DNA of 64,000 bases from a bacterium (GTDB taxonomy: Bacteria > Patescibacteriota > Minisyncoccia > UBA6257 > MFKM01). This document shows positions 42,842 through 54,967 of the stretch, one piece after another; the first letter of the stretch is position 1; each line of letters starts with the position of its first letter. The position numbers were made by a program, and so were the translations under genes. The stretch is taken from the NCBI GenBank assembly GCA_030693325.1, contig JAUYAV010000019.1, positions 65,324 through 129,323 of the forward strand. The letters run 5' to 3'. Under the pieces are notes generated by a model that worked only from the letters and a program-made list of their open reading frames with translations, searched no databases and was not told where the DNA came from.

Positions 42842-42859
42842 GATATACTTAAGTATATC
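42842..42859. promoter_or_regulatory. 18-bp perfect palindrome GATATACTTAAGTATATC (copy 1) at the 3' flank of the TrpR-like gene
   Basis: Exact self-complementary 18-mer. Confidence 0.8.
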
Positions 42860-42866
42860 ATGAAAA

Positions 42867-43256
42867 CTAAATAATGCTTTGGGCGCCTTTATAGCTTGGA
42901 AGCAATGGTTTGTATTTTTTCCCCTTCCTTGCCTCAATATCCAATAATTCTCTTGATTTAAAATTCTTTTTTATGATTCTTTTTCTTGGCTTCTTAAACC
43001 CACTTTTGACAAAACTTATGGTTTTCAAAGTTATGGCCAACTCTCTACTGATTTCTCTATAACTTAATCCTTTCTCCAAAAAATAAAAAATACCCAATCT
43101 TTTTTCAAAGACAATCTTTTCTTGGGGAGTAAAATATTTATCCGAAAAAGCGTCAAATTCTTCATAATTTTTTATATTTTTAATCTCTCGCAAAAACCGC
43201 GTCCAAATATCTTCCTTGAATTTTTTATCAAAATATTTTTTACAGGTCGTGGACAT
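42867..43256 (-). CDS. TrpR/YerC-YecD-like HTH DNA-binding protein
   Basis: FTPQEKIVFEKRLGIFYFLEKGLSYREISRELAITLKTIS matches the Trp-repressor-like fold. Confidence 0.6.
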   Translation of the reverse strand: MSTTCKKYFDKKFKEDIWTRFLREIKNIKNYEEFDAFSDKYFTPQEKIVFEKRLGIFYFLEKGLSYREISRELAITLKTISFVKSGFKKPRKRIIKKNFKSRELLDIEARKGKKYKPLLPSYKGAQSII

Positions 43257-43264
43257 ATTGAAAC

Positions 43265-43675
43265 GATATACTTAAGTATATCACCGTGGCTTAATTTAAG
43301 AATAAAACCCAATCAAATGATGTGTTAAGCGATATACTTAAGTATAACACTGTTGAAAAAAATATAAAATAAAAATAAATAAAAATATCGGATTTGTTCC
43401 AACACCGATAAGTTAATCCAACGCCTTAATCAAATACTCCAATCAAAAAGAGAGTCATATGCTGATATACTTAAGTATATCAGCATTAAAGAGATTTTCT
43501 TCTAGAATTTTTTGAGGGGCCGGAACAATCTAAAAAAGATGATCTAAGTTGGCTGAAAGAGATGGATTTAGAGGATATAAAAACTTAACTTTGGAATAAG
43601 GAGGAATAATCCATTCTTACGAGGTTTAACCTCGTAAGAATCTCTACTCCTACACTGATATACTTAAGTATATCA
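43265..43675. repeat. ORF-free region with four more copies of the GATATACTTAAGTATATC palindrome (43265, 43331 imperfect, 43464, 43656; extended to 22-24 bp in two copies)
   Basis: Copies read directly; the first lies 9 nt upstream of the TrpR-like start codon. Confidence 0.8.
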
Positions 43676-43856
43676 GCTTCGTAGATTACGATGGATTTGC
43701 TCCGACTTTGTCGAGAGTCTCCGACAGGAGTCGCGAGTCATCGGACCTCGATGAAATCGGGACAATTTTGAATCGCTTCTAAACATTATCGAGGTTCGAC
43801 CTCGATAATGTAAAAATTTTTATACTTAAGTCAACTATTGAGATTCAATCTCAATA
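43613..43856. repeat. Three further unrelated perfect hairpins: attcttacgagg/cctcgtaagaat at 43613-43641, cattatcgagg/cctcgataatg at 43784-43810, ctattgagat/atctcaatag at 43834-43856
   Basis: Exact inverted repeats with 3-5 nt loops. Confidence 0.7.
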
Positions 43857-43864
43857 GAAAAATT

Positions 43865-44251
43865 TTATGGGCACCCCGTGATAAGACCATCTTTAATAGT
43901 TGCTTGGCATTTGGTAGTACAAGTGGCATCTGCGCAAAGCCAATATGAAGCGCTATTGGTTAAACCTTGCGTTCCGTCTCCCGAGTAATAATCATTTGCT
44001 CGCAGTGTTCCATTTACTTCTAAAAGATAACTCGGCCCCGCCGTCCCGATGCCGACGTTGCCGTTATCTAATACTGCCATTCTCCATCCACCTGAATAAA
44101 ATCCTGTCCAATCTTCTGCGTCACCTCCACGGCCTATAAAAACTGTATCAGTTGTTGGAGTTCCTGATTCTGTAAACCATATACCACCGCCATTCCCGCC
44201 CGTACCACGAGTCCTTATTCTTCCGACAGTATCTAAAATGTATCCCGGCAC
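43865..44251 (-). CDS. Gly-rich small secreted protein with a GNVGIGT motif and Cys-rich C-terminus (last gene of the pilin operon)
   Basis: Shares the NGNVGIGTAGP repeat with the upstream large protein. Confidence 0.45.
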   Translation of the reverse strand: MPGYILDTVGRIRTRGTGGNGGGIWFTESGTPTTDTVFIGRGGDAEDWTGFYSGGWRMAVLDNGNVGIGTAGPSYLLEVNGTLRANDYYSGDGTQGLTNSASYWLCADATCTTKCQATIKDGLITGCP

Positions 44252-44282
44252 CGTCGTCCCGATGCCGACGTTGCCAGAATTT

Positions 44283-46754
44283 TTAATTAACTTTACAACA
44301 AATAGCTATACACTTATTACCGTACCCGCCACCGCTATAAGTATAGCAATTACAACCATCTGCGACGGGCATGGCAGTTTGGCCTTCTCCTCCTGGAGCA
44401 CATCCTGTTAGGCTATATCCAGCTGGACATGTAGCAGAAGTATAGGTACCTATTGCCGAGTCAGTAGTGACTGCAGTACACGTCAACCCCGTGCCACTCA
44501 ATGTTTTGCTATTAAAACTAGTTGCAATCGCAGCACCGTTTACATCTAACTTCGCCCCCGGACTCGCCGTCCCGATGCCGACGTTGCCGCTAACACTCAA
44601 ATCACTGGCAGTTATCACGCCGTAAGGCGCGGTTGGAGGAGTGAAATTAGAAGTCCAGCGGGCGATGCCCTTGGAGATACGGACTTCGTCTATCCAGCCA
44701 TTAAGATACATTGCTCCACCAGTCGAACCCATAACTAAAACGGATGCAGAATTAGGGAGTGTTCCTAATCCTGTAGTTGTTGATCCTACCTGTATTCCAT
44801 CTTTGAATATTCTTAAATTGTCGCCATTCCTTACAACTGCAAAATGATACCAAACATTAGTTGTATAGGTTACCGCACCTCCTACACTAGCAACTACACC
44901 TGAGTTTATTGAATAAAAAGATATTTGCTCACCACCATATCCTCCAAAATAGAAATATGGGTCAGAAACGCCTTGACCTACAAAGCCAGCCCAACCAGAT
45001 ACACTATTAAATTTTACCCAACTATCAATAGTAAAATCTCCAGTACCAAAATCCCAATCAGCACTATCTGGAACAGTAAGATAATCCGTGCTTCCGTTGA
45101 ACACGGCGCTTTTTGAACCAAACTTATACTGAGCGGTGGTTTGGGTGGCAGAGCCAACAGCGGTAACGGCTTTGCCTGTTGCCGAATCACTGAAGGAAGT
45201 TCCCGAACCCTCCATATGGAGTAATAACTTGTTGTAGCTGTCCGTTGTCTGCAATCCTTGGGGAGCGTTTATCAATCCGGCCACGTCTAATATATAACCC
45301 GGGTTAATTGTCCCGATGCCGACGTTGCCGGAGGAATTTACAACAAGGGCGTCAACTGCAGTAGGCGTAAGATATCTGACGATGACGATGCCTGAACCAC
45401 CAGCATAGCCTGGTGATGTTGCATACCGACCATCACCACCATTTCCACTATTTGCTGCACCTGCCGCAGAACCTCCACCACCATGACCACCTGCTGCATA
45501 GGTTATTGAAGCACCTGAAATAGAGTTCGCTGTCCCATTTCCTCCTACGCCTCCATTATGCAAAGGATTATTTGTTGGAGCCGAACCAACACTTGCTGAC
45601 CCTCCTCCTCCACCGCCACCTGCACCGCCTCCAGCATAACCATTCTGACCACCATTATACCCTTGGCTACCTGTTCCTACAGTTGCTGGACCATAATTGA
45701 AATAACCGGCGCCACCTCCGCTTCCTCCATTAACTCCGTTAGGTAGATTATTATCCTGTCCTGCAATCCACCCAGCCCCTCCACCACCACCGCCATTAGC
45801 AGTAATAGTTGAAAATACGGAATTATTACCAGAAGAACCTTTTACATACGCTCCAACTCCACCTGCACCACCATTACCAACAGTAACTGTGTAAGCTTGC
45901 GCAGTAACTGCTAAAGAAGCATTATATTGATAACCTCCTGCTCCTCCTCCACCCGCACCACCATTACCTGATGAACCTCCACCACCCCCACCTGCTACAA
46001 CAAGAACTTCTACATTTCTAGAAACATTTGGAGTGAAGGTTCCACCAGGATATGTAAAGGTATGAATAGTGTAACCCCCGATATATGTTATTGTTCCACC
46101 AGTAGCAGAAGATGTTGGTGTTACTTTTACATGTAAGGGTCCAGCCGGCGCTGTCGTCCCGATGCCGACGCTGCCGTCATTTAAAATTACCATTTTTCTT
46201 GCATCAGTATCGGCGCTGGCGAATGTTCCAAAAACAATATCATAGCGAGACATAATACCCAAATTTCTTCTACCTGAAGCGTTATAAGAAAATATTGATT
46301 GCCTGAAACTATCATCAGTGCCATCTGTTAAATTTATTACAGCACCCAAGGTAGTCATATCTGGAAAATAACTTGAGCTAACAAACGCACCCGCAGTACT
46401 TCCAATTTGTACTTGTTTGTAAGTATCCCCTTGCACCTGCAACTTTGACAATGGATTCGCCGTCCCGATGCCCACGTTCCCGGCGTTGGTATTGTAGATA
46501 TTAGTGGAAGAAGCGGCCCAACCCACGCCTCCAAGAACAGACCAAGCGCCGCTCGCGTAACCCCGGAAAGCGTTGCTCGCGGTATTGTAGTAGATAGACC
46601 CGTTCTGGGCTCCGGCCACGGGGTCGTTAATCAGCTGGCCCACATTGAGGAGATTGGAAATGTTGATGTCTTTCCATTTGTAAGTGGCATCACCCAGGGA
46701 AAAAGAATTGTTGGTATTGGGAATCAAACTATCGTCAAAGGTGGCGGCGCTCAC
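44283..46754 (-). CDS. Large Gly-rich surface protein with GNVGIGT repeats and a C-terminal LamG/ConA-like lectin domain; probable pilus-associated adhesin
   Basis: About 5 copies of xGNVGIGTxxP; poly-Gly tracts; LamG-like region (WDFGTGDFTIDSWVKF...WYHFAVVRNGDNLRIFKDG); sits immediately after the pilin gene. Confidence 0.55.
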   Translation of the reverse strand: MSAATFDDSLIPNTNNSFSLGDATYKWKDINISNLLNVGQLINDPVAGAQNGSIYYNTASNAFRGYASGAWSVLGGVGWAASSTNIYNTNAGNVGIGTANPLSKLQVQGDTYKQVQIGSTAGAFVSSSYFPDMTTLGAVINLTDGTDDSFRQSIFSYNASGRRNLGIMSRYDIVFGTFASADTDARKMVILNDGSVGIGTTAPAGPLHVKVTPTSSATGGTITYIGGYTIHTFTYPGGTFTPNVSRNVEVLVVAGGGGGGSSGNGGAGGGGAGGYQYNASLAVTAQAYTVTVGNGGAGGVGAYVKGSSGNNSVFSTITANGGGGGGAGWIAGQDNNLPNGVNGGSGGGAGYFNYGPATVGTGSQGYNGGQNGYAGGGAGGGGGGGSASVGSAPTNNPLHNGGVGGNGTANSISGASITYAAGGHGGGGSAAGAANSGNGGDGRYATSPGYAGGSGIVIVRYLTPTAVDALVVNSSGNVGIGTINPGYILDVAGLINAPQGLQTTDSYNKLLLHMEGSGTSFSDSATGKAVTAVGSATQTTAQYKFGSKSAVFNGSTDYLTVPDSADWDFGTGDFTIDSWVKFNSVSGWAGFVGQGVSDPYFYFGGYGGEQISFYSINSGVVASVGGAVTYTTNVWYHFAVVRNGDNLRIFKDGIQVGSTTTGLGTLPNSASVLVMGSTGGAMYLNGWIDEVRISKGIARWTSNFTPPTAPYGVITASDLSVSGNVGIGTASPGAKLDVNGAAIATSFNSKTLSGTGLTCTAVTTDSAIGTYTSATCPAGYSLTGCAPGGEGQTAMPVADGCNCYTYSGGGYGNKCIAICCKVN

Positions 46755-50902: not shown

Positions 50903-50949
50903 TTTTGTTTGTCTTGAGTAAATCTCATAATTTTTATATATTTAACGAT

Positions 50950-53900
50950 ATGCTGAAAGACATTAAGAATCTGAAAAATTCCGAGCTTGAAGAAAAAGTT
51001 CTTAAATTCTGGCAGGAAAATAAAATTTTTGAGAAATCCCTGGAGAGACGAGCGAAGAAACCGCTTTTTTCTTTTTATGACGGACCGCCTTTCGCCAACG
51101 GTTTGCCTCACTACGGCCATATTTTAGCCACCGTTATTAAAGACGCTACGACCCGTTTTTGGACAATGGCCGGCTTCAGGGTTGAACGCCGGGTGGGCTG
51201 GGATACTCACGGTTTGCCCGTGGAAACCGAGATTGAAAAACAATTGAATCTCAAGGGCAAAAAAGACATTGAAAAATTCGGCATTGAAAAATTTAACGCC
51301 GCCTGCCGCGATTCGGTTTTCCGTTATAAAAAAGAATGGGAAAAAACTCTTGAAAGAGTCGGCCGCTGGGCTGATTATGGGAACGCTTACGCCACTTTGG
51401 ACAATTCCTACATGGAATCGGTCTGGTGGGTTTTTAAAAAACTTTGGGAACAAAAACTGATTTATAAAGATTTCCGGGTAACGCCGTATTGTTTCCGCTG
51501 TGGCACGCCTTTATCCAATTTTGAAGTAAATCAGGGCTACCGGGAAGCCGAAGACCCATCGGTTTACGTGAAATTTAAAATAAAAAATCCGAAATCTTCA
51601 AAAAACGAATATTTGCTGGTTTGGACGACTACCCCCTGGACATTGCCTGCCAATGCCGCCATTGCCGTTAATCCGGATTTAATTTATACGAAATATTCGG
51701 TGAATGGAGATTATCTTTTTTCTTATAGCGCGCCTCCGGCTTTAACCGGCGTTAAAATTGAAGCTGTTGAAAAAATTTCCGGCAAAAAACTTGCAGGTTT
51801 GGAATACGAGCCGCTTTATAAACTTGCAGGTTCGGAATTTAAAGTTAATGATTGTTATCGGGTTTTGCCGGCTGATTTTATTTCAACCGAAGAGGGGACG
51901 GGGTTGGTTCATATCGCGCCGGCTTTCGGAGAGGAAGACATGAAAGTGGGCAAAAAAAATAATCTTCCGGTTCTAATAACCGTGGATGAAGAGGGGAAAA
52001 TGAAAACGCCGGGTTATTCTTGGAACGGTTTGTTCGTCAAAGAAGCCGATAAAGTCATTTTTGAAGATTTAGAAAAAAGAAATCTTTTGTACAAAAAAGA
52101 AACCGTTCTTCACCAGTATCCTTTTTGCTGGCGCTGTGATTCGCCGTTGCTTTATTATCCTTTAAGCACCTGGTATATCGCCGTTGCCAAAATCAAAAAT
52201 AAATTAATAAAAAATAACAAGAAAATTCATTGGGTGCCGGAGCATATTAAAGAAGGAAGGTTCGGCAAGTGGCTGGCTGAAGCGCGGGATTGGGCTTTTT
52301 CCCGGAATCGTTTCTGGGGCGCGGCGTTGCCGATTTGGCAGTGCCAGTCCTGTCAGCAAAATATCGCCATAGGTTCCCTGAAAGAGTTGGCGCAATCGGC
52401 GGTTAATGCGAATAATCATTATTTTATTTTGCGGCATGGTCAGGCCGAATCAAACCATCATAAAATTATTTCTTGCTGGCCGGAAAAAATAACAGTCAAA
52501 CTTACTGACAAAGGAAGGGAACAAATTGAAAAAATCGCCCAAGTTTTAAACAAAAAAAATATTCAACTTATTTTTTCTTCGGACCTTTTGCGCACCAAAG
52601 AAACCGCCGGGATTGTTTCTAAAAAAATTAATATTCCGGTTAATTTTGACGAACGTTTAAGAGAATATAATGTCGGGGAATTCAACGGGCAACCGATAGA
52701 AAAATTCAACGATTTTATGGGCGAGAAAATAAATTTATTTTCTAAAACTCCCGAAGGAGGAGAGAATTTAAGCGATATTAGGAAACGGATGATGGATTCT
52801 ATTTTGGAATTGGAAAAAAAATATAAAAATAAAAATATTTTGATTGTCAGCCACGGCGATCCGCTCTGGATTTTGGAAGGAGCCAGCCAGGGGCTCAACG
52901 AGAAAGAGCTTGTAAAATCAATGGAAAATTACATTAAAGTAGGCGAACTGCGGGAAATCAAACTTTCCAATTTACCTTATGACGGGGAAGGGAAATTAGA
53001 TTTACATCGCCCTTATATAGACAAAATAGAATTGCGGTGTCCCGAATGTGAAGGCCGGGCCAAGCGTGTTTCGGAGGTTTTTGACTGCTGGTTTGAATCC
53101 GGCTCCATGCCTTACGGCCAATGGCATTATCCTTTTGAGAATAAAAATTTGGTGGAAAAAACTTTTCCCGCTGATTTCATCGCTGAAGGCCTGGACCAAA
53201 CCCGGGGCTGGTTTTACACTCTTCATGTTTTAGCCGGCGCTTTATTTAATAAACCGGCTTTTAAAAACGTAGTTGTTAACGGACTTGTTTTAGACGCCCG
53301 TGGAATGAAATTAAGCAAAAAACTGCGCAACTACGCCGAACCGGAAATAATTTTTGATAAATACGGGGCTGACGCTTTGCGTTATTTTCTTCTGAGCTCC
53401 ACTCAAATCGGCGAGGATTATCAGTTTTCCGAAAAAGGCGTGGCAGAAATTTTCCGGAAGGTGATTGATAAATTCAGGAATGTTTTCAATTTTTATCAGC
53501 TATACGCGGGGAATATCCGCATAAATCCCTGCCTGCCTGCCTGCAGAAGCGTTTCTTTATTGGATAAATGGATTTTAGCCCGGCTCAACGAAGTCATCTT
53601 AAAAATGACCGAAAAAATGGAGGCCTATGAACTTACCGATGCCACCAGAATTCTTATGGAATTTATTGACGACCTTTCAAATTGGTTTGTCAGGCGTTCC
53701 CGGAAAAGATTTTCGGGTGAAGATTCCAAACAGGCCTCGGCCGTGCTTGGTTATATAATTTTGGAAACCAGCAAATTAATGGCGCCTTTCGCCCCGTTTA
53801 TTAGCGAGGCGATTCATATGACTTTGACGCAAAATTCGGTTCATCTTGAAGATTGGCCCAAAGCTGATAAAAATCTGATTGATAAGAATTTGTTGGAATC

Positions 53901-54054
53901 AATGGTTGAAGTGCGGCGGTTGGCCAGTTTGGCTTTAGCCAAGAGATTGGAAGCCGTAATAAAAGTGAGACAGCCGCTGGCGTCATTAAAACTCAAAAAC
54001 TCAAAAACTCAAAAACAGCAAAGGACTATTAGATATTTTGAAAGACGAAATTAA
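50950..54054 (+). CDS. ileS: Isoleucyl-tRNA synthetase, main part. It contains an inserted histidine-phosphatase (PGAM-like) domain at about 52400-53000 and is frameshifted at its 3' end. A TTG at 50905 is an alternative start.
   Basis: PFANGLPHYGH (HIGH motif), KLSKKL (KMSKS motif), Zn knuckles; inserted RHG...SHGD block. Confidence 0.9.
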   Translation: MLKDIKNLKNSELEEKVLKFWQENKIFEKSLERRAKKPLFSFYDGPPFANGLPHYGHILATVIKDATTRFWTMAGFRVERRVGWDTHGLPVETEIEKQLNLKGKKDIEKFGIEKFNAACRDSVFRYKKEWEKTLERVGRWADYGNAYATLDNSYMESVWWVFKKLWEQKLIYKDFRVTPYCFRCGTPLSNFEVNQGYREAEDPSVYVKFKIKNPKSSKNEYLLVWTTTPWTLPANAAIAVNPDLIYTKYSVNGDYLFSYSAPPALTGVKIEAVEKISGKKLAGLEYEPLYKLAGSEFKVNDCYRVLPADFISTEEGTGLVHIAPAFGEEDMKVGKKNNLPVLITVDEEGKMKTPGYSWNGLFVKEADKVIFEDLEKRNLLYKKETVLHQYPFCWRCDSPLLYYPLSTWYIAVAKIKNKLIKNNKKIHWVPEHIKEGRFGKWLAEARDWAFSRNRFWGAALPIWQCQSCQQNIAIGSLKELAQSAVNANNHYFILRHGQAESNHHKIISCWPEKITVKLTDKGREQIEKIAQVLNKKNIQLIFSSDLLRTKETAGIVSKKINIPVNFDERLREYNVGEFNGQPIEKFNDFMGEKINLFSKTPEGGENLSDIRKRMMDSILELEKKYKNKNILIVSHGDPLWILEGASQGLNEKELVKSMENYIKVGELREIKLSNLPYDGEGKLDLHRPYIDKIELRCPECEGRAKRVSEVFDCWFESGSMPYGQWHYPFENKNLVEKTFPADFIAEGLDQTRGWFYTLHVLAGALFNKPAFKNVVVNGLVLDARGMKLSKKLRNYAEPEIIFDKYGADALRYFLLSSTQIGEDYQFSEKGVAEIFRKVIDKFRNVFNFYQLYAGNIRINPCLPACRSVSLLDKWILARLNEVILKMTEKMEAYELTDATRILMEFIDDLSNWFVRRSRKRFSGEDSKQASAVLGYIILETSKLMAPFAPFISEAIHMTLTQNSVHLEDWPKADKNLIDKNLLESMVEVRRLASLALAKRLEAVIKVRQPLASLKLKNSKTQKQQRTIRYFERRN

Positions 54055-54388
54055 CGTCAAAGAAATTATTTTTGATTCCGAAATAAAAGAGGAATTGGAA
54101 TTGGACACCAAAATAACGCCAGAGTTGAAAGCGGAAGGTGTTTTAAGGGATTTGACCCGGCTGGTTCAGGGTTTGCGCCAGGACGCCGGCTATCAGCCGA
54201 AGGACAAAATTATTTTGATGATTGAAGCCCCGGCGGAACTAAAAGAGATTTTGGAAAAGAATAATGTTTTTCTCAAAAAAGAAATCAACGCCCATGATAT
54301 TGAGCTAAGACATTCGGACAAGTTTGACGCGGAATCAAGCACTAAAATGAACGACTGGCAGATTTGGCTGGGAGTAAGAAAAATTTAA
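54038..54388 (+). CDS. ileS: IleRS C-terminal domain in the +1 frame (continuation of ileS after a frameshift at the AAAACTC x3 repeat)
   Basis: ELDTKITPELKAEGVLRDLTRLVQGLRQDAGYQPKDKI is the conserved IleRS C-terminal region. Confidence 0.75.
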   Translation: MKDEINVKEIIFDSEIKEELELDTKITPELKAEGVLRDLTRLVQGLRQDAGYQPKDKIILMIEAPAELKEILEKNNVFLKKEINAHDIELRHSDKFDAESSTKMNDWQIWLGVRKI

Positions 54389-54410: not shown

Positions 54411-54444
54411 ATTCAGGTACTATCACGCGTGATAGTACCTGAAT
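54411..54444. promoter_or_regulatory. 34-bp perfect palindrome with core ACTATCACGCGTGATAGT, at the 3' flank of the second TrpR-like gene (likely also the ileS terminator)
   Basis: attcaggtactatcacgcgtgatagtacctgaat. Confidence 0.8.
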
Positions 54445-54892: not shown

Positions 54893-54945
54893 AGATATTG
54901 TTCGGTCTATTTTAGCTAATTTTAAGATAAAATTTATTTTTATTC

Positions 54946-54967
54946 AAACTATCACGCGTGATAGTTT
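54946..54967. promoter_or_regulatory. Second copy of the ACTATCACGCGTGATAGT palindrome, about 55 nt upstream of the TrpR-like paralog 2 start
   Basis: aaactatcacgcgtgatagttt. Confidence 0.8.

Follow-up and report, generated by a model that had tools for sequence, protein, structure and literature searches.

INTRODUCTION

The tryptophan repressor TrpR of Escherichia coli, which acts at the trpR, trpEDCBA and aroH operators, binds as a dimer to a palindromic operator of 18-20 bp (PDB 1tro) and represses its own gene by way of a promoter-borne operator. HisR (YerC), the histidine repressor of the same family in Firmicutes, uses 20-bp palindromic operators whose consensus is lineage-specific, and autoregulation is found for about half of its genes, hisR (PMC9413887). 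Genes surrounded by their own palindromes are also found in systems of repetitive extragenic palindromes (REP), their hairpin-forming doublets (REPIN) and REP-associated tyrosine transposases (RAYT) (PMC3116915, PMC3337134): the RAYT gene is ‘typically flanked by multiple REPINs’ with which it co-evolves, and singlets of the form a-palindrome-a′ arise (PMC3337134). Here we analyse two TrpR-like genes, and the perfect palindromes that bracket them, in a 64,000-nucleotide stretch of contig JAUYAV010000019.1 (assembly GCA_030693325.1, positions 65,324 to 129,323; hereafter the window) from a bacterium of the Patescibacteriota, or Candidate Phyla Radiation (CPR). CPR bacteria have tiny genomes and are mostly uncultured, and little of their regulation has been characterised experimentally.

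An earlier note on this DNA had described each of the two genes as carrying a private palindrome of 18 bp at both ends, and had proposed either autoregulated repressor-operator pairs or small palindrome-bounded cassettes. We find that such bracketing is a habit of the whole protein family, that the palindrome co-varies with the recognition helix of the protein, and that one of the two palindromes is dispersed over CPR genomes.

RESULTS

Two members of a large TrpR/YerC-type family

Both TrpR-like open reading frames (ORFs) exist as the earlier note had given them (Table 1), and both match the Pfam family Trp_repressor above its gathering score of 27, an assignment that nearly all of their homologues share in precomputed annotation. 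Identity between the two proteins is 29%, and the 64-kb window holds no third TrpR-like paralog. Neither the NCBIfam TrpR equivalog (TIGR01321, cut-off 67.25; 16.2 and 23.2 bits) nor the YerC/YecD family (TIGR02531, cut-off 42.2; 23.1 and 29.2 bits) is reached, the latter still being the best NCBIfam match. A search with a family profile found the YerC-like structure 3kor at E 2e-9 and E. coli TrpR weakly. Of all proteins that have been characterised or structurally solved, HisR/YerC is nearest in sequence (3kor, TIGR02531).

The AlphaFold2 model has six helices, with pLDDT of 90-97 in the core, followed by a disordered basic C-terminal tail. In a Foldseek search of the PDB the top 26 matches were all TrpR/YerC proteins (probability 0.93-1.0), with E-values of only about 0.02-0.2 and TM-scores of 0.4-0.65. 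Pfam family and fold are shared with E. coli TrpR, and its residues W19, E47, R54 (in the corepressor pocket), T81 and I82 are invariant across the alignment of these proteins. Scans with Pfam, NCBIfam, PHROGs and PADLOC returned helix-turn-helix (HTH) families only, and no HUH/Y1 transposase, nuclease or other catalytic domain.

Orthologues of gene 1 in CPR metagenomes are 54-100% identical to it and those of gene 2 40-100%; where the sources name the homologues, they are Trp family regulators of Patescibacteria, Parcubacteria or Paceibacterota metagenome-assembled genomes (MAGs). The family amounts to 632 clusters at 50% identity (E 1e-10 or better). Both proteins belong to a large TrpR/YerC-type HTH subfamily whose members of identifiable source come from CPR bacteria. 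The HTH part of the family profile also matches 7-12 times each in three proteins of 740-1112 amino acids (P0129, P0138 and P0164), which suggests tandem arrays of TrpR-like HTH units within one polypeptide.

Matching palindromes at both ends of the genes

Gene 1 is surrounded by five copies of the 18-mer GATATACTTAAGTATATC (pal1) within at most 850 bp, four of them exact and one with a single mismatch, where 0.02 copies are expected by chance. Gene 2 has two exact copies of a different palindrome, ACTATCACGCGTGATAGT (pal2), 18 nt past its stop codon and 55 nt ahead of its start (Table 1). The four sites named in the earlier note are exact and lie where it had placed them. Its description of gene 1 holds for the presence of pal1 at both ends and fails for the number of copies, since three more lie upstream; the gaps of 8 and 9 nt that it had given measure 7 nt on the stop side and 8 nt on the ATG side. 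Beyond these clusters the window contains no further pal1 or pal2, whether exact, with up to 3 mismatches or as half-sites with a free centre. Its perfect palindromes of at least 14 bp number 14, and 7 of these belong to the pal1 and pal2 families. A reading of the palindromes as restriction sites, from their centres CTTAAG and ACGCGT, was rejected: every even palindrome has a palindromic centre of 6 bp, and the centres differ among orthologues.

To the window we added DNA fetched around orthologues and around more distant members of the family (loci numbered with L), at least 14 of these loci coming from a metagenome scan for family breadth. A scripted layout test then looked for palindromes of at least 14 bp, not made of A and T only, whose 14-bp cores agreed within 2 mismatches between the 350 bp upstream and the 150 bp downstream of a gene. 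A matching palindrome stood on both sides of 17 of the 18 TrpR-like genes and of none of the 98 other genes in the same loci; with five loci fetched later, 22 of 23 TrpR-like genes were bracketed. This recurrence supports the earlier note where it gave either paralog a cognate dyad on both sides. In most loci the stop codon and the 3′ copy are 3-20 bp apart, and the upstream copies, 1 to 5 per gene, are found at -3 to -580.

Orthologues of gene 1 (group 1; 54-92% identity) retain exactly pal1 (copy numbers in Table 1). Its 3′ copy stands at +6 to +8 in L001, L021, L064 and L065. The -8 copy, together with the copy 7-8 nt past the stop, is conserved among the window, L001 and L064; in L065 the +7 copy is present too, and the start-proximal one stands 17 nt ahead of the ATG. 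In nucleotide alignments of close relatives the palindromes appear as islands of identity amid diverged intergenic DNA. A Wolfebacteria MAG carries a TrpR-like pseudogene (L053, 838-1092) in which the invariant Trp codon TGG has become TGA and the ORF ends short of the recognition helix; of its three flanking pal1 copies two are mismatched and one is exact.

Foreign dyads were seen at two loci: GGTACTACTACGCGTAGTAGTACC lies between the two 3′ copies of L010 (5448-5471), and the 3′ copy of L077 (2046-2067) has a pal2-type centre (CTATCACGCGTGATAG), unlike its two 5′ copies. They may reflect cross-regulation between paralogs. Near pal1 clusters of three genomes we also noted a second hairpin family, (A)TTATCGAGGT-N-ACCTCGATAA(T), at 43785-43811 and 43616-43642 of the window, at 1131-1150 of L001 and at about 640-665 of L021; the copy at 43783-43811 gives the sole terminator-like score there.

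Table 1. Genes, palindromes and expression signals of the window, with the palindromes of the loci fetched for comparison
Sequence	Feature	Position	Strand	Basis or remark
Window	TrpR/YerC-like HTH gene 1, 129 amino acids	42867..43256	-	Pfam PF01371, 36.3 bits
Window	TrpR/YerC-like HTH gene 2, 145 amino acids	54455..54892	-	Pfam PF01371, 41.2 bits
Window	pal1 3′ copy (putative 3′ operator)	42842..42859	.	exact match; 7 nt past gene 1 stop codon
Window	pal1 start-proximal copy (putative operator)	43265..43282	.	exact; 8 nt upstream of gene 1 ATG
Window	pal1 one-mismatch variant	43331..43348	.	overlaps predicted extended -10
Window	pal1 copy 43464-43481 (exact) inside 28-bp perfect palindrome	43459..43486	.	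distal, -207
Window	pal1 copy 43657-43674 (exact) inside 22-bp perfect palindrome	43655..43676	.	distal, -400
Window	putative intrinsic terminator of upstream operon, TATCGG...CCGATA then T run	43386..43410	-	read from sequence; conserved in L001
Window	pal2 3′ copy 54419-54436 inside 34-bp perfect palindrome	54411..54444	.	between convergent ileS C-terminal ORF and gene 2
Window	promoter-like TTGAAT-17-TAAAAT for gene 2	54919..54947	-	consensus scan; conserved in L011
Window	pal2 5′ copy 54948-54965 inside 22-bp palindrome	54946..54967	.	abuts predicted -35
L001	six pal1 copies			within one mismatch
L065	six pal1 copies			
L004	one pal1 copy upstream, four downstream			downstream copies in array at ~70-bp spacing
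L005	three pal1 copies upstream			one at -6
L064	three pal1 copies			labelled Saccharibacteria
Window, L011, L066, L092, L093	dyad ACTATCACGCGTGATAGT			group 2
L073	dyad GCTATCACGCGTGATAGC			group 2
L007	dyad GCTATCATTAATGATAGC			group 2
L077	dyad GCTATCCYGCGRGATAGC			group 2
L010, L094	dyad GCTACCACWWGTGGTAGC			group 2
L072	dyad ACTACCGCATGCGGTAGT			group 2
L074	dyad ACTACCACGCGTGGTAGT			group 2
L090	dyad GCTACCGCGCGCGGTAGC			group 2
L076	dyad CTTCCCTAYAGGGAAG			group 2
L091	dyad ACTACCYYTAGAGGTAGT			group 2

The palindrome co-varies with the recognition helix

Around the relatives of gene 2 (group 2) the dyad changes from locus to locus (Table 1), and it does so together with the protein. 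The recognition helix T-I-S-A-[LI]-K-K is associated with the half-site CTATC (10 loci) and T-I-S-S-I-K-K with CTACC (5 loci); the variable residue is the one that aligns with Arg84 of E. coli TrpR. This rule was stated after the first loci; proteins were then chosen by their helix sequence and their loci fetched. The new loci L090, L092, L093 and L094 all obeyed it, P0053 and P0056 (T-I-S-S) having CTACC and P0035 and P0039 (T-V/L-S-A) having CTATC. Two loci depart from the rule, L076 (A with CTTCC) and L091 (V with CTACC). As the S-type proteins may be a single clade, few independent evolutionary events lie behind the co-variation. Together with the bracketing of the family, the co-variation supports the earlier view of these genes as probable cognate, autoregulated repressor-operator units.

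Dispersal of pal1 in CPR genomes

An exact scan for pal1 over a database of 596 Gb, with one genome per GTDB species, returned 52 stretches, compared with about 9 expected (our own arithmetic, uniform composition). About 33 of them lie in some 17 CPR MAGs labelled Saccharibacteria, Paceibacterota, Wolfebacteria, Colwellbacteria or Parcubacteria, and in several of these incomplete genomes pal1 is present on 3-5 separate contigs. A TrpR-like gene adjoins pal1 at only L021, L064 and L050, and as the pseudogene of L053, among these ~33 loci. For pal1 the word private was wrong: in addition to the five local copies, the exact 18-mer occurs at other intergenic loci of CPR genomes, far from TrpR-like genes. 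Nor does it behave as the generic REP-like elements, abundant, random and without enrichment near the genes, to which the earlier note had opposed its reading: a MAG has roughly 4-6 loci, and copies are in every case most densely clustered at the gene.

The solo pal1 sites that could be scored were all intergenic (21/21), 12 of them between tandem, 5 between divergent and 4 between convergent genes. A conserved pal1 regulon was sought by clustering the genes that flank all CPR sites and was rejected, the TrpR-like gene being the sole recurrent family; the absence of a recurrent neighbour family is unlike a conserved regulon. A DNA-repair theme among the neighbours (exoIII, RNase HII, UvrD-like, RuvB and Mpg) was also set aside, these being five cases collected by eye and not separable from chance. 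In ten pal1 copies self-complementarity extends by at least 8 bp into the flanks, some dyads reaching 34-36 bp.

Doublets and arrays of pal1 also occur, as direct repeats 70-130 bp apart, with a spacer common to three contigs of one Saccharibacteria MAG. The arrays with this spacer, at L036 (2780-2930), L043 (2469-2562), L047 (6527-6764) and L004 (4518-4749), belong to the three contigs and to an unrelated groundwater contig. The pal1 arrays include an interrupted copy, GATATCgtagtcaaACTTAAGTATATC, and several stand at contig ends.

Turnover can be followed in JAVHOD01, the closest relative in GTDB, whose TrpR locus is 92.8% identical to that of the window. This genome has two solo pal1 copies in segments that the window lacks: one in a 1.1-kb insertion between ychF and ileS, together with a gene for a 175-amino acid NVGIGT-repeat protein, the other at a GNAT gene adjoining proS. 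Sites of the pal2 type showed no dispersal among the sequences examined and were seen only at the gene. The contrast between pal1, with several sites per genome frozen across distant lineages, and pal2-type sites, which drift with their protein, fits a cognate repressor-operator reading. In itself, pal1 could mark a small regulon in rapid change, or else be a dispersed palindrome of REP-like kind that has an HTH partner in place of a transposase.

Expression signals and RNA folding

The one-mismatch pal1 variant, which reads TGTTATACT on the minus strand, overlaps a putative extended -10: a promoter scan predicts TTTATA-16-TATACT with TG at 43368..43341, and the variant base is found also in L001. 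The symmetric 22-mer CTGATATACTTAAGTATATCAG, the commonest flank type (16/54 copies), contains TGnTATACT on both strands. The putative terminator of the upstream operon (Table 1) was missed by the terminator scan because its loop exceeds 8 nt.

Folded as RNA, the gene-proximal pal1 copies are weak (-6.3 kcal/mol for the centroid of the 3′ copy, z about -1.4 to -1.5) and have no U tract, which favours a role at the DNA level. The hairpin of 43459-43486 reaches -16.1 kcal/mol (z -6.0), that of 43655-43676 -14.9 kcal/mol, and that of 54411-54444 -21 to -22 kcal/mol on both strands (z -6.9 and -8.4). Neither 3′ copy was recognised as a canonical intrinsic terminator in the scan. The pal2 3′ hairpin is strong, yet what comes after it on the strand of gene 2 is GAAAACAAAAC, not a canonical U tract.

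Surroundings of the two loci

The two genes have mostly housekeeping neighbours: lysS and serS, followed by genes for a type IV pilin-like protein and a LamG/glycine-rich surface protein, and further ileS, trpS and RNase J. No his genes adjoin any palindrome copy, and no trp biosynthesis genes are near the copies. Locus 2 is syntenic with L011 over 10 kb at ~80% nucleotide identity, in a trpS/ileS neighbourhood, and the upstream side of locus 1 is common to the window and L021.

Several origins of the palindromes were considered and rejected. A replication origin or terminus found no support, GC skew having no switch at locus 1 or locus 2. Against a phage or plasmid origin, the viral contigs with either palindrome are all without a TrpR-like gene, PADLOC gave nothing and PHROGs gave weak generic HTH matches only; five of the six viral pal1 matches are one conserved viral locus. 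Known RNA families and tRNA-derived elements were absent from the intergenic regions, with no Rfam match.

Other features of the window were noted in passing. A perfect palindrome of 46 bp, AAAATTAAAAGGCGATGCCTGGCGCCAGGCATCGCCTTTTAATTTT, occupies 442-487, between tRNA-Arg (369-441, +) and tRNA-Leu (548-630, -); to judge by its A and T runs, it may terminate transcription in both directions. The isoleucyl-tRNA synthetase (50905-54388, +) has a His_Phos_1 domain inserted in its catalytic domain (residues 507-664, E 3e-35). Its gene is split into a 1049-amino acid ORF and a 116-amino acid C-terminal DUF5915 ORF that overlap by 17 nt, the L011 orthologue being a single protein of 1193 amino acids; a frameshift, an error of sequencing or recoding might account for the split.

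Genes for glycine-rich surface proteins with ‘GNVGIGT’ repeats (Gly_rich_2 and LamG) are found at 43865-46754 (-) of the window, at 1246-1773 of L048 and at about 2970-3060 of L021; that of the window adjoins the type IV pilin-like gene and is split into ORFs of 823 and 128 amino acids. A general link between pal1 and ‘NVGIGT’ genes was rejected, as it is confined to the close clade of the window (window, L021, L048 and L059). L059 (JAUYBE010000015.1, 2680 bp) contains one pal1 copy, a 96-amino acid ORF and a right-handed beta-helix protein of 600 amino acids with a phage-depolymerase C-terminal domain and the NVGIGT motif. The first and last 141 nt of this contig are identical, which is the MEGAHIT k-mer length and points to a circle of 2539 bp or a collapsed tandem repeat.

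DISCUSSION

The explanation that we consider the most probable, with real room for doubt, is that the two proteins are dimeric binders of the TrpR fold, each of which would autoregulate through its own cognate perfect dyads. Each would bind as a dimer, on double-stranded DNA, to its own perfect dyad of 18-22 bp. Among the 1-5 upstream dyads at least one would overlap or abut the core promoter or the start codon, and the gene would be repressed by promoter occlusion. The dyad a few bases past the stop codon, at times doubled or further multiplied, may serve as a second anchor of a repression loop around the ~400-550 bp gene, or as a protein roadblock or insulator replacing the absent intrinsic terminator. 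The pal1-type protein would also recognise a few further genomic sites of identical sequence; pal2-type sites would be confined to the gene and drift with the protein. From family and fold, site layout, co-variation and the dispersal of pal1 we infer DNA binding and a negative sign of regulation, and the habits of the family, palindromic operators of 18-20 bp and frequent autoregulation (PMC9413887), match this explanation.

A number of observations weigh against such autoregulation. The classical TrpR model does not explain a site just past the stop codon, F, A, S or V takes the place of Arg84, a corepressor-binding residue in E. coli TrpR, and the promoters around the dyads were assigned by consensus scans only. 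Four of the 21 solo pal1 sites lie between convergent genes, a context without a promoter, and the neighbours of the solo sites are unrelated housekeeping genes, none of them recurrent over ~17 genomes. The flanks of pal1 vary from copy to copy yet are self-complementary, with a mean extension of 3.4 bp compared with 0.33 expected; binding by a dimeric HTH protein does not require self-complementary flanks. The exactness of pal1 also far exceeds the need of a transcription factor: of the copies in ~305 kb of CPR loci, 53 are exact, 15 have one mismatch and only 8 have 2-4, a count that is biased because the loci were chosen for an exact copy. Exactness, self-complementary flanks, convergent positions, lack of a conserved target and turnover between close relatives mirror what is seen in REP/RAYT systems.

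These features lead to the main alternative, which we consider unlikely, in which REP-like repeats copy within CPR genomes and the TrpR-like gene encodes their dedicated binder, RAYT-like without the transposase domain, autoregulation being a possible side effect. As with RAYT genes, a single-copy gene is flanked by its own family-specific, co-evolving palindromes, and further copies populate intergenic DNA. Exact pal1 on 3-5 contigs per genome in several MAGs, with the gene at only 3-4 of ~33 loci, would suit copying, as would the mixture of tandem, divergent and convergent solo sites without a recurrent neighbour and a near all-or-none mismatch spectrum. The variable self-complementary flanks have the a-palindrome-a′ form of REP singlets (PMC3337134), long in some copies, and A-run/T-run flanks at some sites resemble co-opted terminators. 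Copies inside insertions that the window lacks, in JAVHOD01, and the shared spacer of the Saccharibacteria arrays point the same way, and so does a patchy distribution, ~17 genomes that nevertheless span Saccharibacteria, Paceibacterota, Wolfebacteria and Colwellbacteria labels with proteins 62-72% identical. What separates these loci from REP/RAYT systems is an HTH binder in place of an HUH/Y1 (IS200-like) transposase, so that mobilisation would rely on host enzymes, and a handful of copies per genome instead of tens to hundreds. Moreover, the doublets are direct and the inverted unit of REPINs was not seen, most solo copies share just a core of 18-22 bp, too little to delimit a longer mobile unit or a target-site duplication, and pal2-type sites are undispersed among the sequences examined. 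A more specific form of this alternative, which seems to us equally doubtful, would have CPR-specific self-propagating repeats spread by host recombination or repair and a catalytically inert TrpR-fold binder that tames or exploits them, a ‘REPtron without a RAYT’; such a binder could, for example, use the repeats as protein-gated terminators or insulators in regulator-poor genomes.

Two further explanations place the function of the palindromes elsewhere, and we give little credence to either. The palindromes might act mainly as RNA hairpins, controlling translation from the 5′ untranslated region and serving as terminator or stabiliser at the 3′ end, with their identity kept by protein-RNA binding or gene conversion. 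The usual place of a terminator is indeed where the 3′ copy stands in most loci, 3-20 nt past the stop; the pal2 3′ copy forms a -22 kcal/mol hairpin between convergent genes, and the stems of many solo pal1 copies are long, in part accompanied by A and T runs. That this is nonetheless very improbable follows from the weak folding of the gene-proximal pal1 copies without U tracts, the negative terminator scan at both 3′ copies, and a 5′ copy at locus 2 that lies upstream of the predicted -35 and would not be transcribed, as well as from the highly variable distances of the upstream copies (-3 to -580), the DNA-binding nature of the TrpR fold and the lack of a match to any Rfam family. Least probable in our view is a mobile or duplicated cassette with the palindromes as boundaries and recombination sites, the second suggestion of the earlier note, which is weak at best. 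Its favourable part is that distant orthologues sit in unrelated neighbourhoods (serS, ParE/RecA, a ribosomal operon, RtcB, NusA and others), that homology of the window with L001 or L065 stops within ~30 bp of the 3′ palindrome, and that several contigs end at or near a palindrome copy. There is, however, no recombinase in or beside the unit; locus 2 keeps its synteny with L011 and locus 1 its upstream side with L021; the 1-5 upstream copies, varying in number and spacing, leave no fixed left end; and paralogs of 29% identity would make any duplication ancient.

Compared with described repressors, autoregulated TrpR-fold binders of this kind would differ from E. coli TrpR by the replacement of Arg84, scores below the equivalog cut-off, an extra basic, disordered C-terminal tail of 40-60 amino acids, perfect multi-copy dyads on both sides of the gene, including past the stop, and the lack of a coherent regulon. 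The HisR regulon consists of his genes and transporters with upstream sites, and no 3′ sites are reported for it, whereas the only conserved target here is the gene itself. A further parallel is lambdoid immunity, where cI lies between OL and OR, looping by CI strengthens autoregulation, and immunity types are co-varying repressor-operator pairs. By analogy, the TrpR-like genes would be repressor genes enclosed by two sets of their own dyad operators; unlike in lambdoid phages, there is no prophage context (serS, ileS, trpS and RNase J are the neighbours), the protein fold is another, the dyads are identical and perfect, and a loop would span only ~0.4-0.55 kb.

TrpR-family repressors, palindromic operators and autoregulation are known. 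In the literature searched we found no paper with the pal1 core and none tying the TrpR family to CPR, Patescibacteria or Saccharibacteria; novelty seems to lie in the conserved bracketing with a stop-proximal copy, in a specificity code that can be read off, and in a pal1 family both dispersed and frozen. The stop-adjacent copy lies outside the classical TrpR/HisR picture and points to looping, protein-dependent termination or insulation. Should pal1 turn out to spread by copy and paste, it would represent a REP-like system with a non-enzymatic partner protein. The correspondence of one recognition-helix residue with one half-site base offers a ready-made specificity code for the TrpR fold. 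In this large family of small regulators the predicted binding sites can be read from the flanking DNA, so that pairs of protein and site are testable without culturing the bacteria.

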